Shown here: piece after piece, positions 1 through 12,828 of the stretch
Position numbering within the stretch: the first letter of the stretch is position 1
Layout: every line of letters starts with the position of its first letter
Origin: Spirochaetota bacterium
GTDB lineage: Bacteria > Spirochaetota > UBA12135 > COTS27 > CBDBHE01
Direction of reading: 5' to 3'
NCBI GenBank assembly: GCA_965205605.1
Contig: CBDBHE010000007.1
Coordinates: forward strand, 320,001 to 384,000
DNA length: 64,000 bases
Program-made: the position numbers and the translations under genes
Notes under the pieces: model-generated
What the model saw: only the letters and a program-made list of their open reading frames with translations
What the model was told of the DNA's origin: nothing
Database searches by the model: none

Positions 1-1138
1 GTAAAAATCGACTGCGATTAACTCCCCTTAACCCCTTCTGCGACAACAAGTAATCTTCACTCACGTATAAATTGTCCTTCGTTAAAAAATGAAACGATTG
101 TATCTCTTCCCTTCCTCCCTTCCCTCTCTCTTCTTCCTCTTCCTCTCCATTATTTCCTTTTCCTTTCCCATTCCCATTTCCATTCCCATTCCCATTCCCA
201 GTCCCATTCCCAGTCCCTTTAGAAAATGATTTAACAAATGACCCGCCTCCCGTTTTAGCACCAGAAAAAAAAGTCTTCTTTTCAATGAAGTACTCCCTTA
301 CCCAATGCTCCCTGCCTTTCGGATTGCAATCACACACCAGTTTCGAAACTCGCTCTTGCATCAAGTCACGTCCCCCATGAAGCCGAGTAAGCAACTTCTC
401 AAAATCTAAAAAATCAATGTCCGTAATCTCTCCAATAAAAATATCCGCCCATTCGCTTCCTAGCACCGCATCACGGTGGCGAGAGTTTTCAATCCCTCCC
501 ATCTCAATCACCGAACCATTCCTAAACACAATCTGCCTTTTCGCTTTCTCTTCTCTCCACTCTCCCCCTTCACCCCCCAACATCCGTTTTAAAACCCCAA
601 GCAACGTCTGCTCATATACCGTCTTCATCACACTCGTCACCGTCTTCCTCACCACTAGCCTCCTCGTCTGCGGCATCAAACAACTCCTAGCTACAAAAAA
701 AACACACAATAAAAAAGTCTTGCCAGCTCGACTAGCCCCATACAATAAAAAACTCTTCCCTTCTCCCCAAAGTCGTCCCCACACTTCCTTTTGACGCTCG
801 CTTAAATCTACCATCCGATATTTTAAAATCTCTCTCCCATTACCTCTCTCAAAACCTCTCCCATTACCTCTCTCAAAACTTCGTCCCTCTCCCAAACTTC
901 CTTCCTCCCCTCTTTCTCTTTCTCTTTCTCTTTCTCTTTCTCTTTCTCTTTCTTCCTTCCTTCTTTTGCCTTCAAATCGCTCCATCATCTCGACAAGCTT
1001 AATCAGCCCACGAGGGTCCTCTTTACTCTTCTCCATAAACCCTCTCACCATTTGCTCTACCCCTCTTAGTCCCTCTCCCTTTTCCCCAAACAAGTATTCG
1101 CTAATAAACCCTTCTATCTTTTCTAAAATCCTTCTCAT
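1..1138 (-). CDS. Phage terminase large subunit (PBSX-like), N-terminal ATPase half; runs off the left window edge
   Basis: Manual translation from ATG at 1138 (SD GGGGAGG upstream) is open to base 2. It shows a Q-motif LSERQ, Walker A LYGASRAGKT, RRLVVRKT, FRNGSVIEMGG, Walker B-like GSEWADIFIGE, coupling motif DCNPKGREHW and TKDNLYVSEDY...RSRFL. Not in the ORF track because there is no stop in the window. Confidence 0.85.
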   Translation of the reverse strand, partial: MRRILEKIEGFISEYLFGEKGEGLRGVEQMVRGFMEKSKEDPRGLIKLVEMMERFEGKRRKEERERERERERERERGEEGSLGEGRSFERGNGRGFERGNGREILKYRMVDLSERQKEVWGRLWGEGKSFLLYGASRAGKTFLLCVFFVARSCLMPQTRRLVVRKTVTSVMKTVYEQTLLGVLKRMLGGEGGEWREEKAKRQIVFRNGSVIEMGGIENSRHRDAVLGSEWADIFIGEITDIDFLDFEKLLTRLHGGRDLMQERVSKLVCDCNPKGREHWVREYFIEKKTFFSGAKTGGGSFVKSFSKGTGNGTGNGNGNGNGNGKGKGNNGEEEEEERGKGGREEIQSFHFLTKDNLYVSEDYLLSQKGLRGVNRSRFL

Positions 1139-2792: not shown

Positions 2793-3662
2793 ATGAAACC
2801 TCTCGTTAACGAGTTTTCTTTAATTTTTAGCCCAAGCCTTTCAAAACACTTGGGACTCAAACAAGCCATTTTCTTGCAACAACTTCATTACTGGATTGTT
2901 AAAAAAATCGAAAAAGACCCCGAAAATCCAAAGTCTTTTTGGGTTTACAACACCGCAAAACAGTGGTGCGAGCAACTGCCTTTTTTGTCTGAAAAATCTT
3001 TCTGGCGACTTATCTCGTCTTTGAAAAAAAAAAACCTTCTGCTTGTCTCAAACCAAAACCGACTTAAGTTTGATAAAACTAATTGGTATTCTCTCCATTA
3101 CCAAAACTTGCATTCTCTTTTTAAATGGCCTCTATCATCGGCCCCTTCATCACAACCAACTGCTTCATCACAATCCCCCAAAAGTCGTTTAAGCTCTAAC
3201 CCTCCTCCTCCATTGTTTCCCACTCCTTTAGTCCAAATTGACCCTTCCCACCTGCCCCCTTTGACCCCCCCTATACCAGAGACTAACCCTAAGACTACTC
3301 ATCCATCTATTTCTTTATCCATTCCTTCCCCATCACCTACTGATTTTTCTTTACCCCCTCAAGAGCCGTCATTAAAAAAACCCTTAGAAGAGAAAAATGT
3401 TTTTTTAAGTAAATCTCAAGTGGTCTTTTTGTTAAAAAAATATTCCAAGACCTTGCTTAGGAAGTTTATTAAAAAATTAAGCTTGTACAAGTGGTCTTCG
3501 GGAAAAAAGTACGCATGTGATTTCGCTGCAATTTTAAACTGGGTGGCCGTGGCCGTCTTGAAAGAAGAAAAAACAGCTTCGCGAAAACCTAGCTCAAGGG
3601 CTTATAAACTCCACCCCAATCAAAGGGCTCTTAAACGCTATTTGGAAATGGAAAAAAATTAA
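2793..3662 (+). CDS. Phage replication initiator / replisome organizer
   Basis: N-terminal wHTH motif LGLKQAIFLQQLHYW...WVYNT..QW..QLPF.SE; Pro/Ser linker; C-terminal GKKY.CDFAAILNW, typical of phage initiators. Confidence 0.8.
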   Translation: MKPLVNEFSLIFSPSLSKHLGLKQAIFLQQLHYWIVKKIEKDPENPKSFWVYNTAKQWCEQLPFLSEKSFWRLISSLKKKNLLLVSNQNRLKFDKTNWYSLHYQNLHSLFKWPLSSAPSSQPTASSQSPKSRLSSNPPPPLFPTPLVQIDPSHLPPLTPPIPETNPKTTHPSISLSIPSPSPTDFSLPPQEPSLKKPLEEKNVFLSKSQVVFLLKKYSKTLLRKFIKKLSLYKWSSGKKYACDFAAILNWVAVAVLKEEKTASRKPSSRAYKLHPNQRALKRYLEMEKN

Positions 3663-6263: not shown

Positions 6264-8858
6264 ATGAAAAAAAAGACTTTATTAATTTTATTGGTAATGT
6301 TGATGTTTTGGCTAGAGGTTTGGAGTGCTGATAGAGAGCGAGAAAGGAGCGGAGTGATATTAAAACGAGGGGATAATTTTTTTAAGGAAGTTTATTTAGA
6401 AGGTACACTTGAGGTTTTTTTAGAGAACAGGGTTGACTTTGGGACGGTTCAAAATGAGACGGTGGGGGGGCTTAGTGAGAGTGAGCGGTATGTATTTTCG
6501 CTAAGGGGAGGAGGGTATGTTTGGAATCAATTTTTTTATCAAGGCTTTAATATCACTGATAGCTTGATTAGTGGCAGTAGTTTGTATAAGCTTTTTCTTT
6601 TTGACAAGAGGTTGGAGATTAATGGGTCGAAGGGGCACTTTTCAATCGAGGACGATTTTTTGGGGGGAAGCGAATGGAGGATAGAAGGGCAGGTTTCTCC
6701 TTTTGGGGAGCGATTTTTTTTAGCGGATGCTTGGACGAGAGAGCTTGGAGGGTATTCTTCGGTGTATGAGAGGGAGGGCAATTTACTAAAGGACGAGGGG
6801 AAGAGGAGGGGACGAGTACCGTTTAGTTTTTCAGGGATGGTGAGGAAGGTGTTGAAGAGAGGTGGTGAGGAAAGGAATGAGGCAGGAGGAGGGAATGGGA
6901 GAGGGAGAGGAAATAATTCAGTAAGTGTGTTTGAAATGAGTTATCTTGAGATGAGGCGAGAGTTAAGAGAGATTGATTTTAGAGGGGAGGAGGGACGATA
7001 TGAGAGTGGGTTTAGGCGATTGGGGGGACGGTTTGAAAAGAAGTGGACTAGTGGAGTGGGGGAAGGGGCTAGTGAGTGGCACTTAGGGCAATTATTTTTG
7101 GTGAGTGAGAATGATAATTTTGATTCTTATTTAGGGCTGGATAAGAGGGAAGGGAGAAGGTTAGGAGGTGGGACGTGGAGTAGTTTTTTAAAGGGGAAGA
7201 AAGGAGGGTGGGAAGGCACTGGGGGAGTGAATGTGTCTTATAAGAGATTTGAAGGGCAAGTGGGAGGAGAAGGAGGAGTAAGTTATAATGTTTTTGATTT
7301 AGGGGGAGAGAGGGTGGGGTCTTTTTTATCTCCTTTGTATGAAGGGGTGAGTGTGTCGGTTCCTTTGAAGGTAGAGCTTGATTTAGAGGGGAAGGGATGG
7401 ATGAGGGGGACGAAAATAGTTTTAGATTCGAAGGATGATTTTATTTTCACATTTCCGGTTGTGAGGCGACGAACGCATGGGGTGTATTTTGAAACGGAAG
7501 AGGAACGTTTTTCACTTTACGCTAGGAGGGAGGTGTTGAGGGAAAGTGAGAGTTGGTTAAGTCATCGGTCTTTAGGGATAAAGGGATTTATGGATTGGTT
7601 TAAGGATAGGTTTTTTATGAGTGCGTGGGAGGTAGCGATGGAGGGGAGTGGGTTTATAATTAGAGGGGAGGAGAGATTATTTTTTATGAACGCGAGTTTT
7701 GAATTAAAAAACAGCTTTAATTTCAGCGATATTTTTGAAATTGAAATTGATATTGGGAAAAAGAACATTGGTTTAGAGAGCAAAACGATGTTATTTTTTT
7801 CCGACTCTTTTTCATCGAGTGAGAGTTATTACTGGGCGGATAAGAACGACAATCAAAGAGTAGAAGAAGGAGAAGTAAGTGAGAAGGTGTTTGATACGAG
7901 CGGAGGGAGATGGCATCGACTGAGGGAAGATTTAAGACAACCGTATTTGTTGTATTTGGAACTTCCTTTGAGGGTGAGGGCGAGTGAAGCGATTGGTTTT
8001 GAGTGGGGATTTTCTTACCGTTCGTTTAGGGACTTGTACTGGGTGAGTTACAAGGAAGATGAGAGGGAGGTAGGGTTTTTTGAAACCGATGAAGAAGGAA
8101 GGGAGTGGTATTTTTTAAAGGAAGGGGAGAAGGTCTATGAAGTGGGTAATTTTAATTTAAATGAAGGGTTGCTAAAAGAAAGGGTGAGTGAAGAAGAGTG
8201 GCCCAGGGGTCATTTTTTTTTAGAGCATCCTTTTTATTTATCGATGAGGCTTGGGCTTGATTATGAAAAGGAAGACATTAGGGCTGGGATTAGTTTCACG
8301 GCATTTTTAGTGATGATGATAAACAGCAGGGGAAATGGGGTAGGTTATCAAAGCTTGGGCTTACTTTCAGAACAAACGGCAAACCCAAACGGGTATCGAT
8401 TTTCAGCGGGCAGAGGAGATGCTGATAGGGGGTATTTTATGAAAGCGTATTATTACCATAAAATCAATTCGCATTTTTCTAGCAGCTGGACTCTCAAGTA
8501 TCGAGACGGACAACCTTTTGGGGTATCTGAGAGTCGAGTCAAAGAAACGGCTCTTGTGGGGGGAGGAAAAGGGAGGCAAGTGAGTTTTCAAAGAAGTAAT
8601 GTGCATGGAGACAATATTTTCAATGGTAAGTTTGGCAGGAGAGAAGACTCTCACTGGGATTTAAGTGGGCGCTTTAGAGTTTATTTTTTTAAAAGCAAAA
8701 AAAAGAATCTCAGTTTTTTTTTTTCTGTGGAAAACCTCCTTGACTTGGGGTCTGCTATCCTAGAAGACACGTTAAGGGAGGAGGGCAAAAAAAATCGACT
8801 TGCTCTCAAAGTAGAGCCGCCTAGGTCTGTTAGTGTGGGGTTAGAAGGGACTTTTTAA
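6264..8858 (+). CDS. Outer-membrane beta-barrel protein, TonB-dependent receptor-like
   Basis: Signal peptide; alternating beta-strand pattern; VENLLD and PPRSVSVGLEGTF C-terminus ending in Phe. Confidence 0.7.
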   Translation: MKKKTLLILLVMLMFWLEVWSADRERERSGVILKRGDNFFKEVYLEGTLEVFLENRVDFGTVQNETVGGLSESERYVFSLRGGGYVWNQFFYQGFNITDSLISGSSLYKLFLFDKRLEINGSKGHFSIEDDFLGGSEWRIEGQVSPFGERFFLADAWTRELGGYSSVYEREGNLLKDEGKRRGRVPFSFSGMVRKVLKRGGEERNEAGGGNGRGRGNNSVSVFEMSYLEMRRELREIDFRGEEGRYESGFRRLGGRFEKKWTSGVGEGASEWHLGQLFLVSENDNFDSYLGLDKREGRRLGGGTWSSFLKGKKGGWEGTGGVNVSYKRFEGQVGGEGGVSYNVFDLGGERVGSFLSPLYEGVSVSVPLKVELDLEGKGWMRGTKIVLDSKDDFIFTFPVVRRRTHGVYFETEEERFSLYARREVLRESESWLSHRSLGIKGFMDWFKDRFFMSAWEVAMEGSGFIIRGEERLFFMNASFELKNSFNFSDIFEIEIDIGKKNIGLESKTMLFFSDSFSSSESYYWADKNDNQRVEEGEVSEKVFDTSGGRWHRLREDLRQPYLLYLELPLRVRASEAIGFEWGFSYRSFRDLYWVSYKEDEREVGFFETDEEGREWYFLKEGEKVYEVGNFNLNEGLLKERVSEEEWPRGHFFLEHPFYLSMRLGLDYEKEDIRAGISFTAFLVMMINSRGNGVGYQSLGLLSEQTANPNGYRFSAGRGDADRGYFMKAYYYHKINSHFSSSWTLKYRDGQPFGVSESRVKETALVGGGKGRQVSFQRSNVHGDNIFNGKFGRREDSHWDLSGRFRVYFFKSKKKNLSFFFSVENLLDLGSAILEDTLREEGKKNRLALKVEPPRSVSVGLEGTF

Positions 8859-10051
8859 AACCCCAAGAGAAACTTTAAATCTTGGGTGTATTTTGTAAGA
8901 AGCTTTAGAGAAAGGTATTCATTTTTTTGGTGAGCTTGGCTAGGAAGGCCGAGTCCATAGTTAAGGGAGGGGATGGAGAAGTCGGTGAGTTGGGCGACGT
9001 CTGTCCAGGCTTGTTTAGGGTGAAGGGTGAGAGAGAGGTTGGTGATGGCTTTTTTGATGAAGGAGTCAAAAAAAGGCGAAGAGAGAGGGGTGGCTCCTTT
9101 AGTGTTGGAGACAATTTCAAGTTTCATGTTAGGGGGAGTTTTAATTTTTTTTAGGAAGGCTGTGAGAGAAAAAAAGGCTTGACGGGGAGTGAAAAAAGGA
9201 GCGTAGCGATAATTGACTCTCGCGGTAAACTTGTGGGGCAAGGTGGTGAAACTTTTGCCGATGCGATTAGAGTGAGCATGAGTGATTTGAAAGACTTCAA
9301 AAAAATCAAGGCCACCGACTTTAATTTTTTTAGGTTTTAGCGTTGAAAAAGCCTTTAAAAACGAAACCGCTTGATAAATCGCATTGCTTCCTTGCCAAGG
9401 CCTAGCCGAATGAGCTGACTTACCAAAAAACGTCATCTCAGCATGCAAGCTACCCAAAGCCCCTAAGTGAATCATCCCTTCGGTTGGCTCTCCCACGATG
9501 GCAAGGTTTACGCTTTTAAAAAAAGCTCGATGATTTCTCAGCATCGAATACAGCCCGTTGTCTTCTAATTTGGTGCCTTCTTCACGACTATAAAGCACCA
9601 CAGAAAGGCGGTAAGAAAGATGACGATACCTATTTTTTTGACACAAAAGCTCTAGCAAATGAAGGTACACCCCCACACTGCCTTTCATATCACTGGCCCC
9701 CCTGCCATGTAAAAAATCTCCTTTTACATACGACTTAAACCATTCTCCTACCACGTCCACATGCCCCACTAAAATCACATGCGGTTTCTTTTTCTTATCT
9801 TCCCTCTCACTTTCTTTAAACTCAACAATAAGACCATCGATTTCATTGCCCGTTAAAATCAGTTTTTCAAACACCTTTGCCTTCGACTTAAGTCGATTTT
9901 TTATAAACGTATAAAAAGGCTTTTCTTTATAAGTAGGGCTTTCAATATCCAACACTTGCTTGATGAGCTCCCCTAAAGCTTTTTCTTCTTTTCTCTCTAA
10001 AAGCGGTAATGGTTTTCCATTTTTTGTTTTTAAAGCTTGATAAACGGACAC
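8855..10051 (-). CDS. dapE: Succinyl-diaminopimelate desuccinylase (M20 family)
   Basis: GHVDVV, HGRGASDMKG, REE, HSARPWQGSNAI, AWTDVAQ and AHQKNE motifs; dapB is nearby. Confidence 0.8.
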   Translation of the reverse strand: MSVYQALKTKNGKPLPLLERKEEKALGELIKQVLDIESPTYKEKPFYTFIKNRLKSKAKVFEKLILTGNEIDGLIVEFKESEREDKKKKPHVILVGHVDVVGEWFKSYVKGDFLHGRGASDMKGSVGVYLHLLELLCQKNRYRHLSYRLSVVLYSREEGTKLEDNGLYSMLRNHRAFFKSVNLAIVGEPTEGMIHLGALGSLHAEMTFFGKSAHSARPWQGSNAIYQAVSFLKAFSTLKPKKIKVGGLDFFEVFQITHAHSNRIGKSFTTLPHKFTARVNYRYAPFFTPRQAFFSLTAFLKKIKTPPNMKLEIVSNTKGATPLSSPFFDSFIKKAITNLSLTLHPKQAWTDVAQLTDFSIPSLNYGLGLPSQAHQKNEYLSLKLLTKYTQDLKFLLGF

Positions 10052-10057
10052 GGTTTC

Positions 10058-12499
10058 TTAATCTTTACCTAAACGGTCTTTTTTGGTTTCTTTCCCCTCA
10101 GAACTTCTTCTCTCGGAACTCCTTCCTTCAGAGTTTCTTCCTCGATCGGAACTTCTTTTTCCTTCTGAGCTCCACGTTTTAAAGCCTCGTCCCTCGGAAC
10201 TTCCTGTTTTAAATCTTCTTCCTTCAGAACTTCGTCCCTCAGAACTTCTTCTCTCGGAACTCCTTCCTTCAGAGTTTCTTCCTCGATCGGAACTTCTTTT
10301 TCCTTCTGAGCTCCACGTTTTAAAGCCTCGTCCCTCGGAACTTCCTGTTTTAAATCTTCTTCCTTCAGAACTTCGTCCCTCAGAACTTCTTCTCTCGGAA
10401 CTCCTTCCTTCAGAGTTTCTTCCTCGATCGGAACTTCTTTTTCCTTCTGAGCTCCACGTTTTAAAGCCTCGTCCCTCGGAACTTCCTGTTTTAAATCTTC
10501 TTCCTTCAGAACTTCGTCCCTCAGAACTTCTTCTCTCGGAACTCCTTCCTTCAGAGTTTCTTCCTCGATCGGAACTTCTTTTTCCTTCTGAGCTCCACGT
10601 TTTAAAGCCTCGTCCCTCGGAACTTCCTGTTTTAAATCTTCTTCCTTCAGAACTTCGTCCCTCAGAACTTCTTCTCTCGGAACTCCTTCCTTCAGAGTTT
10701 CTTCCTCGATCGGAACTTCTTTTTCCTTCTGAGCTCCACGTTTTAAAGCCTCGTCCCTCGGAACTTCCTGTTTTAAATCTTCTTCCTTCAGAACTTCGTC
10801 CCTCAGAACTTCTTCTCTCGGAACTCCTTCCTTCAGAGTTTCTTCCTCGATCGGAACTTCTTTTTCCTTCTGAGCTCCACGTTTTAAAGCCTCGTCCCTC
10901 GGAACTTCCTGTTTTAAATCTTCTTCCTTCAGAACTTCGTCCCTCAGAACTTCTTCTCTCGGAACTCCTTCCTTCAGAGTTTCTTCCTCGATCGGAACTT
11001 CTTTTTCCTTCTGAGCTCCACGTTTTAAAGCCTCGTCCCTCGGAACTTCCTGTTTTAAATCTTCTTCCTTCAGAACTTCGTCCCTCAGAACTTCTTCTCT
11101 CGGAACTCCTTCCTTCAGAGTTTCTTCCTCGATCGGAACTTCTTTTTCCTTCTGAGCTCCACGTTTTAAAGCCTCGTCCCTCGGAACTTCCTGTTTTAAA
11201 TCTTCTTCCTTCAGAACTTCGTCCCTCAGAACTTCTTCTCTCGGAACTCCTTCCTTCAGAGTTTCTTCCTCGATCGGAACTTCTTTTTCCTTCTGAGCTC
11301 CACGTTTTAAAGCCTCGTCCCTCGGAACTTCCTGTTTTAAATCTTCTTCCTTCAGAACTTCGTCCCTCAGAACTTCTTCTCTCGGAACTCCTTCCTTCAG
11401 AGTTTCTTCCTCGATCGGAACTTCTTTTTCCTTCTGAGCTCCACGTTTTAAAGCCTCGTCCCTCGGAACTTCCTGTTTTAAATCTTCTTCCTTCAGAACT
11501 TCGTCCCTCAGAACTTCTTCTCTCGGAACTCCTTCCTTCAGAGTTTCTTCCTCGATCGGAACTTCTTTTTCCTTCTGAGCTCCACGTTTTAAAGCCTCGT
11601 CCCTCGGAACTTCCTGTTTTAAATCTTCTTCCTTCAGAACTTCGTCCCTCAGAACTTCTTCTCTCGGAACTCCTTCCTTCAGAGTTTCTTCCTCGATCGG
11701 AACTTCTTTTTCCTTCTGAGCTCCACGTTTTAAAGCCTCGTCCCTCGGAACTTCCTGTTTTAAATCTTCTTCCTTCAGAACTTCGTCCCTCAGAACTTCT
11801 TCTCTCGGAACTCCTTCCTTCAGAGTTTCTTCCTCGATCGGAACTTCTTTTTCCTTCTGAGCTCCACGTTTTAAAGCCTCGTCCTTCAAACTCTTTTCCG
11901 CCTAAATCTTTTTCTTCTAAATCTTGTCCTTCTAAATCATCCCGATTTAAATCTTCGTCCCTCAGAACTTCTTCCTTCGGAACTTCTTCCTTCAAAGCTC
12001 CACGTTTTAAATCTTCGTCCCTCAGAACTTCTTCCTTCGGAACTTCTTCCTTCAAAGCTCCACGTTTTAAATCTTCGTCCCTCAGAACTTCTTCCTTCGG
12101 AACTTCTTCCTTCAAAGCTCCACGTTTTAAATCTTCTTCCTTCAGAACTTCTTCCTTCGGAACTTCTTCCTTCAAAGCTCCACGTTTTAAAACCTCGTCC
12201 CTCAGAACTTCTTCCTTCAGAGTTTCTTCCTCGATCGGAACTTCTTCCTTCAAAGCTCCACGTTTTAAATCTTCGTCTCTCAGAACTTCTTCCTTCAGAG
12301 TTTCTTCCTCGATCGGAACTTCTTTTTCCTTCTGAGCTCCACGTTTTAAACCTTCTTTCTTTACTTTCTCTAAGCTTTCTTTAGGTGAGTTTCTGGGGGT
12401 AGATGAATCATCTTTTGAAAAAAAAGAAGAATCCTTTTCACTAGATTCATTTGAAGATTCTCTTGAAAGTTCGTTTGAATCTGCTTTATTAAAGGTCAC
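10058..12499 (-). CDS. Intrinsically disordered repeat protein: acidic repeat block followed by an Arg/Ser/Gly repeat block
   Basis: 813-aa ORF with unique N- and C-termini, ending 6 bp before the dapE start; weak GTG start with no clear SD. Confidence 0.65.
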   Translation of the reverse strand: MTFNKADSNELSRESSNESSEKDSSFFSKDDSSTPRNSPKESLEKVKKEGLKRGAQKEKEVPIEEETLKEEVLRDEDLKRGALKEEVPIEEETLKEEVLRDEVLKRGALKEEVPKEEVLKEEDLKRGALKEEVPKEEVLRDEDLKRGALKEEVPKEEVLRDEDLKRGALKEEVPKEEVLRDEDLNRDDLEGQDLEEKDLGGKEFEGRGFKTWSSEGKRSSDRGRNSEGRSSERRSSEGRSSEGRRFKTGSSEGRGFKTWSSEGKRSSDRGRNSEGRSSERRSSEGRSSEGRRFKTGSSEGRGFKTWSSEGKRSSDRGRNSEGRSSERRSSEGRSSEGRRFKTGSSEGRGFKTWSSEGKRSSDRGRNSEGRSSERRSSEGRSSEGRRFKTGSSEGRGFKTWSSEGKRSSDRGRNSEGRSSERRSSEGRSSEGRRFKTGSSEGRGFKTWSSEGKRSSDRGRNSEGRSSERRSSEGRSSEGRRFKTGSSEGRGFKTWSSEGKRSSDRGRNSEGRSSERRSSEGRSSEGRRFKTGSSEGRGFKTWSSEGKRSSDRGRNSEGRSSERRSSEGRSSEGRRFKTGSSEGRGFKTWSSEGKRSSDRGRNSEGRSSERRSSEGRSSEGRRFKTGSSEGRGFKTWSSEGKRSSDRGRNSEGRSSERRSSEGRSSEGRRFKTGSSEGRGFKTWSSEGKRSSDRGRNSEGRSSERRSSEGRSSEGRRFKTGSSEGRGFKTWSSEGKRSSDRGRNSEGRSSERRSSEGRSSEGRRFKTGSSEGRGFKTWSSEGKRSSDRGRNSEGRSSERRSSEGKETKKDRLGKD
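10095..11885. repeat. 141-bp tandem repeat, ~12.7 apparently identical copies
   Basis: Marker GAGCTCCACG recurs at 10167, 10308 ... 11859 (period 141); encodes a 47-aa unit. Confidence 0.97.
11946..12350. repeat. 60-bp tandem repeat (~4 copies) plus longer variants, built from the same 15-bp subunit as the 141-bp array
   Basis: Sequence lines 11941-12180 repeat with period 60; subunit approximately CTTCTTCCTTCAGAA. Confidence 0.9.
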
Positions 12500-12717
12500 G
12501 GGAGTATTGGTTTTTATTGATAATCGGTTTAAAGTTTTATTAGTTTTAGGCTTTATTAATGACGATTTTTTTTTAATTGATTTTTTTCAAAAAAAGATTA
12601 TTTTACTTACTTTTTTACTTACTTTATAAGATTATTTAAAATTATTTAAGATTATTTTATTTATTAAAACTTTATAAGAAAAAAAATACTTTTAAAAAGA
12701 AAGGTTCCACTTTACAA

Positions 12718-12754
12718 TTAAACACTTAAACACTTAAACACTTAAACACTTAAA
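12718..12754. repeat. 8-bp tandem repeat (TTAAACAC) x4 in the divergent promoter region upstream of htpG
   Basis: Read directly from the sequence. Confidence 0.85.
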
Positions 12755-12828
12755 AAAAAAACAACTTGATTTTAACAAAAAAATAAGTTTACCATCAATT
12801 TTGATAATAAGTTAAGGAGTCAAAAAAA

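Follow-up and report, generated by a model that had tools for sequence, protein, structure and literature searches.

Background

Changes of reading frame within tandemly repeated coding DNA are known from several systems. Disease frameshifts occur inside the coding repeats of MUC1 (a variable number tandem repeat) and of DSPP; bacterial contingency loci undergo slipped-strand phase variation at a non-triplet repeat unit or a homopolymer tract; and alleles of the Plasmodium falciparum S-antigen carry repeats that differ in reading frame. Here we describe an 813-residue open reading frame (ORF) of a Spirochaetota bacterium (GenBank assembly GCA_965205605.1), in which a single 15-nt repeat lineage is read in two registers, as an acidic block and then as an Arg/Ser-rich basic block. 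The ORF extends from GTG 12499 to TAA 10058 on the minus strand (10058-12499) of the window, by which we mean the whole 64,000-nt stretch that was analysed (positions 320001-384000 of contig CBDBHE010000007.1, G000:C7); positions are those of the window unless another contig is named. The genome comprises 1.69 Mb in 8 contigs, is 91% complete, and is the sole member of its own family among the reference genomes searched.

Frameshifted repeats have been surveyed across proteomes by Osmanli et al. 2025 (PMC12871928), and that study reports that DNA periodicity persists in the shifted frame, that the shifted reading is Arg-rich with Arg-Ser and Arg-Gly motifs, that such shifts are proposed to create new disordered or functional segments, and that the acidic tail of HMGB1 is turned Arg-rich by a frameshift. 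The survey compares annotated frames with hypothetical shifted ones, whereas here both registers occur in one natural bacterial ORF, and internal evidence leans towards the Arg-rich register as the selected one. Mutually compensatory frameshift pairs, as described in PMC8935012, leave the segment between two insertions or deletions (indels) in the other frame with its flanks in frame. The present ORF is similar in that its N-terminal region, linker and tail lie in frame 0 (the frame of the 813-residue ORF) and its array lattice is offset by one base, but it differs in that only the 5' shift is demonstrable and in that the shifted segment spans approximately 600 codons. The 5' shift is evident from 62 identical nucleotides found at phases 2 and 0, whereas the similarity of the tail to the repeat unit is not significant (its score is equalled or exceeded in 371 of 500 shuffles), so that a 3' compensating shift is not demonstrable.

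The disease alleles of MUC1 and DSPP and the frameshifted HMGB1 share with this locus a long basic neo-sequence arising from one indel in a repeat that lacks stops in the new frame; they are, however, pathological eukaryotic alleles with a known native frame, whereas here the native frame is the question. Contingency loci likewise contain a repeat inside a coding region where a frame change alters the product, but the units described below include none of non-triplet length, and homopolymers in the linker do not exceed 5 nt. The S-antigen presents related repeat DNA in different frames, though between alleles of a eukaryotic antigen and not within one polypeptide. Nor does the product resemble a eukaryote-type Ser/Arg-rich protein, in which an RNA-recognition motif accompanies Arg-Ser repeats: it has no Pfam domain, and its GRSS, RRSS and KRSS motifs are broken by Glu and Gly instead of forming runs of Arg-Ser dipeptides. 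What is new here is the presence of both registers of identical DNA within one bacterial polypeptide; frameshift-derived repeat novelty and compensated frameshifts are of a kind already known. A literature search that was not exhaustive, and that did not extend to the supplements of PMC12871928, found no described bacterial protein reading identical repeat DNA in two registers.

Results and discussion

One repeat lineage read in two registers

Both arrays of the 813-residue ORF belong to one 15-nt repeat lineage (GAAGGAAGAAGTTCT). The GTG start is followed by a unique Ser/Asp/Glu-rich N-terminal region of approximately 50 residues (12350..12499, minus strand, as are all parts of the ORF), in which only frame 0 is open (no stops, versus 3 and 7 in the other frames) and the codon adaptation index (CAI) is 0.654 against the genome reference. 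Next comes an N-terminal array (11957..12349) built of 78-bp units (tandem array 12133-12350; 2.8 copies, 90% matches) and 60-bp units (11946-12231; 4.8 copies, 96% matches), which is read in an acidic K/E/L register (KRGAL KEEVP KEEVL RDEDL). A linker of degenerate pentads (NRDDL EGQDL EEKDL GGKEF; 11885..11956) follows, open only in frame 0, with 4 and 2 stops in the other two frames; the earlier note had recognized this linker but put it at approximately 20 codons, and its size is corrected here to approximately 24. Within it, a junction unit of 16 nt instead of 15 (11887..11902), containing runs of A4 and T3, introduces a one-base change of register. Beyond the junction, a perfect array (10095..11884; period 141, 12.7 copies, 100% matches), by far the largest tandem array of the genome, is read in a basic register (EGRGF KTWSS EGKRSS DRGRNS EGRSS ERRSS EGRSS EGRRF KTGSS). 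Nine members of the GAAGGAAGAAGTTCT lineage, seven of 15 nt and two of 18 nt, make up the 141-bp unit, and a 15-nt period was also detected beneath the larger periods. The ORF closes in frame 0 with a unique tail of 12 residues (GKETKKDRLGKD) and the TAA stop (10058..10096).

The two registers are most directly seen in a 62-nt stretch of the N-terminal array (12289..12350) that recurs letter for letter at 11814-11875 and in each unit of the 141-bp array. Read from 12350 to 12289 it lies at ORF phase 2 and is translated as LKRGAQKEKEVPIEEETLKE; read from 11875 to 11814 it lies at phase 0 and is translated as FKTWSSEGKRSSDRGRNSEG. The proposal that one repeat lineage is used in two registers of a single ORF, first acidic and then Arg/Ser-rich, thus holds as originally made. 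Net charge follows the registers, amounting to -14 over the N-terminal array, -8 over the linker and +76 over the 141-bp block.

The acidic frame remains open across the 141-bp array, as had also been claimed, yielding an alternative reading of 606 residues (10069..11889) from TTG 11889 with a net charge of -70; over 20 residues it is identical to the N-terminal block. Upstream it is closed by TAG 11904-11902 and by two further TAGs in the linker. Closure of the remaining sense frame over the array had been attributed to TGA, which is indeed present, but TAA closes it too. An addition to the earlier description is an antisense open frame of 750 residues (10083..12335, plus strand), which is confined to repeat DNA without unique flanks and has a CAI of 0.515, bringing to three of six the frames that are open over the repeat. 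When the mononucleotides of the unit were shuffled 5000 times, at least two sense frames stayed open in 7 cases, a test that overstates the surprise because the unit consists of about nine diverged copies of one 15-mer. Start codons in frame 0 comprise GTG 12499 and five TTG codons of the N-terminal array (12253, 12175, 12115, 12055 and 11995), with none inside the 141-bp array; since only frame 0 is open upstream, the basic block can be made solely by translation that continues from the acidic part.

The 141-bp unit was reproduced without variants in k-mer contigs of three sequencing runs, of which X1 and X2 derive from one sample and X3 from another; no RNA run was among those listed as containing the sequence. 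The copy number of the unit estimated by k-mer depth is approximately 11.5-13.4 in X1 and 16.0-18.3 in X2, compared with 12.7 in the assembly; the difference between X1 and X2 within one sample represents either copy-number heterogeneity or depth noise.

Evidence for the translated register

Analysis of these features suggests, with a probability that we place near one half, that the locus is one protein-coding gene for a real two-register, disordered block polyampholyte. In the long array, the basic register would be the one that is translated and selected. Several lines of evidence point in this direction. Over the tail (10058-10096), a codon, stop and background model scores frame 0 above the acidic frame by 5.12 nats, a value that the wrong -1 frame reaches at 2 of 736 real gene ends of the genome; under local parameters the figures are +5.42 and 1 of 21. 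Translation stops at TAA in frame 0 and at TAG in the acidic frame, and stop codons of the genome are TAA in 662 cases, TGA in 150 and TAG in 106 (n = 918). A minimum spanning tree connecting the 13 distinct 15-mers contains 25 substitutions, whose distribution over codon positions 1:2:3 is 9:3:13 in the basic register, the usual coding order, versus 3:13:9 in the acidic register, where position 2 would vary most. The same 13 15-mers encode 8 peptides in the basic register versus 11 in the acidic one, and the 30-nt segments encoding EGRGF-KTWSS and EGRRF-KTGSS have 9 differences, of which 5 are synonymous when read in the basic register but only 1 when read in the acidic one. Furthermore, across the approximately 260 nt of non-repeat DNA in the N-terminal region, the linker and the tail, frame 0 alone is open.

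The substitution pattern also bears the mark of both registers. When all pairs are compared, the ratio of non-synonymous to synonymous differences per site (pN/pS) comes to 0.45 for the acidic, 0.34 for the basic and 1.33 for the closed register; a simple simulation gives approximately 1.4 in the other register when selection acts on one, and 0.45, 0.45 and 1.30 when it acts on both. Substitutions that are non-synonymous in both registers account for 2.8 of the 25 on the tree, compared with an expectation of 40-52% (with the transition/transversion rate ratio, kappa, set between 1 and 4, P lies between 0.00003 and 0.003). The pN/pS, simulation and tree tests are exploratory, being based on few events and a star-like model in which all replacements are treated alike. 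The simplest reading of this pattern is that the repeat lineage has been translated in both registers, as the present gene would do, and the identical 62-nt tract indicates that the N-terminal array and the 141-bp array still exchange sequence. Dual coding of one array would have a candidate start in the TTG at 11889, whereas the purifying-type signal in both registers can be explained by the two arrays.

Codon adaptation was considered as strong support for the basic register and was withdrawn once local genes served as the reference. With the genome-wide reference, the CAI is 0.597 for the basic register versus 0.464 for the acidic register, an advantage that the -1 frame attains over the true frame in 0.32% of real windows of 47 codons. 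In the 50 kb around the gene, however, the G+C content at third codon positions (GC3) is 0.38 versus 0.22 genome-wide, and with these 50 kb as the reference the registers are equal, so that codon adaptation was given no weight. Positions ~1-25000 of the window and the 20 kb upstream on the same contig have a G+C content of 34-44% versus approximately 30% in the genome, and core genes (HtpG, CCA-adding enzyme, L13 and DapB) have GC3 values of 0.34-0.38 versus 0.22 genome-wide, a contrast indicating that codon usage is strongly heterogeneous along the genome.

Weighing the alternatives

A number of observations count against a gene that uses both registers, or reduce the force of the arguments for it. 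The acidic register too has variation of the synonymous type (CTG AAG, TTG AAG and TTA AAA all encode Leu-Lys), and many changes that are silent in the basic register cause conservative replacements in the acidic one (K/R, E/D, V/A); the codon-position, redundancy and duplication arguments are therefore weaker than they look. Against local genes, whose CAI is 0.718 +/- 0.032, the acidic register (0.722) scores no worse than the basic register (0.690). The contig cover of X1-X3 leaves out the linker at 11888-11971, which contains the junction. In the protein collection, none of 8 candidate products (the three ORFs and five TTG-start variants) was found, and both neighbours (HtpG and M20) were present. 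The evidence for either frame comes from the sequence itself.

Other such observations concern the junction. Upstream of the long array, frame 0 is read as pentads with Leu at the fifth position (...KEEVL RDEDL NRDDL EGQDL EEKDL), and KDEAL, with which the acidic-register pentads of the array open, begins 16 nt and not 15 past EEKDL, such that one base less in 11902-11887 would produce a continuous acidic protein of approximately 810 residues with Leu at every fifth residue. That the gene encodes such a K/E/L pentad protein throughout, and that an extra base in the junction unit, erroneously assembled or very recently acquired by mutation, puts the 141-bp array in a frame kept open only by the lack of stops in the repeat, has in our estimate a little better than one chance in four. 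It would account for the 20-residue identity between the off-frame reading of the array and the N-terminal block, and the k-mer depth of the flanks is approximately 5 in the only runs that contain the sequence. A frameshift of this sort is present in the same assembly: the long-form hisG (L103:1238-2106, G000:C8) is split exactly at an A8 run into ORFs of 211 and 82 residues in different frames, so that an artefactual indel or a recent mutation at the junction is still to be reckoned with. Mean log codon frequency, with amino-acid usage included, slightly favours the acidic register (-4.039 vs -4.126). Shifted tandem repeats are typically Arg-rich, approximately seven-fold more so in prokaryotes, according to PMC12871928, and this prior favours an acidic native frame and an Arg/Ser-rich shifted one. 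What argues for the junction as assembled is that its homopolymer runs are only A4 and T3 (the longest in the linker is 5), compared with A8 at the verified frameshift; that the tail favours frame 0 (2/736; locally 1/21); that the acidic register would vary most at codon position 2; and that only 1 of the 9 differences between the internal 30-nt duplicates would be synonymous there. Alignment of the linker with the unit needs several gaps, and a unique position for an indel was not located.

The remaining alternatives are less probable. The locus might contain no maintained gene at all but a fast-expanding, satellite-like array in a decaying or never-functional orphan ORF, its open frames being a by-product of a stop-poor, purine-rich repeat; the missing homologues and domain matches reported below, the three open frames of six and the absence from the protein collection are all in keeping with this, but it is an unlikely account of a frame 0 that persists through approximately 260 nt of non-repeat DNA where other frames are closed, of the deficit of doubly non-synonymous substitutions (2.8/25), and of pN/pS values that are low in the two open registers and high in the closed one. 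The earlier note had gone further than a two-register sequence, proposing a block polyampholyte made by frame-switching in which a 1-nt slip or an internal start flips the long block from basic to acidic. The two registers are a fact of the sequence; the charge switch is not borne out, and expression of both registers of the 141-bp array, whether by initiation at TTG 11889, by frameshifting of ribosomes or by a reversible slip of 1 nt, is rated very improbable. Although both registers are open over 1.8 kb and the substitution pattern (0.45/0.34/1.33) is nearer to the simulation of two-register selection than to that of one-register selection, the dual signal is equally explained by two arrays that exchange sequence while each is read in its own register. 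All units (15, 18, 60, 78 and 141 nt) are multiples of three, so that gain or loss of copies by slippage cannot alter the frame; the junction is free of long homopolymer or dinucleotide tracts; and reading through 11880-11910 revealed neither a canonical X XXY YYZ slippery heptamer nor a stop-codon-assisted +1 site. No promoter-like site was found near TTG 11889 or the linker, and the purine-rich run stops one base before that TTG in a genome where Shine-Dalgarno use is weak (124/631 genes). Least probable of all is that the real gene is the 750-residue ORF of the plus strand (SELLPSEFLPRSELL...). It is open over 2.25 kb and has its third codon position in common with the basic register, giving 5/10 synonymous differences in the duplicate comparison, but both of its ends lie inside repeat DNA without unique flanks, it has a single TTG start and a CAI of 0.515, its substitutions are distributed 3:9:13 over positions 1:2:3 with position 2 above position 1, and the unique flanks code on the minus strand.

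Homologue searches and repeats in relatives

The 813-residue ORF had no match in a protein homologue search, or in Pfam, NCBIfam and PHROG, and a 60-residue peptide spanning the junction yielded no candidate. A HMMER search of representatives returned 91 matches, of which the 8 top-ranking ones, those inspected, were low-complexity look-alikes (WD40, QDVIK, LKEQQ, SSEVP and similar). Tandem-repeat effectors such as TRP32, TRP47 and TRP120 of Ehrlichia and Anaplasma would be recognized by sequence relationship or by a type 1 secretion signal in an obligately intracellular bacterium; a sequence relationship with them was not found, those 8 matches being similar in composition only. Metagenome scans returned no match to either the junction or the unit (0 in each case), the best score in the ESM Atlas (0.86) was under the level counted as a lead, and the pairing of an M20 gene with a repeat gene was present at none of the HtpG loci of 6 relatives. 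A scan with HtpG itself yielded 80 loci of mixed phyla at 38-54% identity, none of them from a close relative.

Two genomes of the same order contain enzymes with similar repeats, whose frame is fixed by the enzyme domain: an M23 peptidase with approximately 22 IESRN pentads in G006, and a SpoU ribosomal RNA (rRNA) methylase with ESRGY pentads in G003. The basic block of the 813-residue ORF matches the G006 repeat in the true frame of the latter, whereas the acidic reading matches only the G006 off-frame, which contains TGA, a comparison that favours the basic register; by eye, the 15-mers agree in the basic register at 11/15 positions. The enzymes share with the present ORF 15-nt purine-rich units, E/S/R/G pentads and a second open frame (AEILR..., LEVMNPE...), but their repeats are short N-terminal extensions of recognizable proteins, in a single register and in different genes. 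These similarities fall short of demonstrating common descent.

The M23 gene (L003:1470-2705, G006:C1) opens with approximately 22 tandem 15-nt units (ATTGAGAGCAGAAAT) read as IESRN/IEGRS, and a second frame, read as AEILR/AEVLR, is open for 86 residues, the same two-open-frame property as in the 813-residue ORF. In the SpoU methylase gene (L118:172-1944, G003:C297), the N-terminal 15-nt units are read as ESRGY/ESRGS, and two other frames are open (111 and 86 residues). More long arrays of short units lie inside genes at L116:956-2119 and L117:2648-6292 (genomes G005 and G006); the products are a putative lipoprotein in which NNTEG recurs approximately 25 times and a protein that combines a Kdo-transferase domain with several different repeat arrays. 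Tandem repeats inside genes seem to be common in this order.

Genomic neighbourhood

A sigma-70-like promoter match precedes the repeat gene (12769..12798, minus strand; TTGATG, 18-nt spacer, TAAAAT; 9/12 matches plus TG), a match to the consensus only. It lies between the repeat gene and the divergently oriented htpG, in an intergenic region (12500-12828) packed with small AT-rich tandem repeats (ACACTTAA x5, TAAGATTATT x3 and TTAC x5.5). Downstream, a gene for a dapE-like M20 deacylase (8855..10051, minus strand) starts 6 nt past TAA 10058 in the same frame, and no terminator-like site was found between the two genes. The predicted deacylase matches Pfam Peptidase_M20 (1.7e-15) and scores 247.5 bits with TIGR01900, under the cut-off of 304.2. 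Converging on it with a 4-nt overlap is an 864-residue ORF (6264-8858, plus strand) without a match in Pfam, NCBIfam or PHROG. The first 4000 positions of the window are phage-like, with genes for the large subunit of a terminase (2-1138, minus strand) and for a replication initiator resembling DnaD (2793-3662), and strong swings of GC skew over the first 8 kb, together with these phage-like genes, indicate that this is probably a prophage remnant.

Predicted product and origin

The product contains no hydrophobic segment (maximum 19-residue hydropathy -0.47), and an AlphaFold model computed without an alignment has a mean predicted local distance difference test (pLDDT) score of 47 and almost no secondary structure, which is uninformative beyond its compatibility with disorder. 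The protein is predicted to be a soluble, disordered block polyampholyte. If the two-register gene is real, translation would begin at GTG 12499 with an acidic K/E/L pentad block formed by the N-terminal array and the degenerate pentads of the linker, would pass across the 16-nt junction unit into the 141-bp array, read as an Arg/Ser/Gly/Glu block with a net charge of +76, and would end in the short unique tail at TAA 10058. On account of its composition, and of the R/S/G pentads on the rRNA methylase of a relative, the cationic Arg/Ser/Gly block may, with low confidence, bind RNA or another polyanion, with the acidic block moderating that binding.

The two-register state could have arisen through an out-of-register event, either an indel or a recombination joint, in a repeat that is stop-free in two frames. 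The 141-bp unit would have been amplified very recently, because all of its copies are identical. More broadly, and more tentatively, a stop-free, purine-rich 15-nt repeat may have served as building material in two registers, with DNA still being exchanged between the arrays, purifying selection acting in both registers, and acidic K/E/L and cationic Arg/Ser/Gly blocks joined in one polypeptide, a polyampholyte made by overprinting within a gene; we think this possible, at somewhat under one chance in three.

Conclusions

Should the junction instead reflect a one-base error or a recent frameshift, the locus would illustrate that repeat genes can fully hide frameshifts from ORF-based annotation. 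If the two-register gene is real, it would be a clean natural case of a register shift that makes a long segment of opposite charge without a pseudogene stage, with the old and new readings kept side by side in one gene, and frameshifted repeats as a source of novelty would become directly testable in a bacterium.

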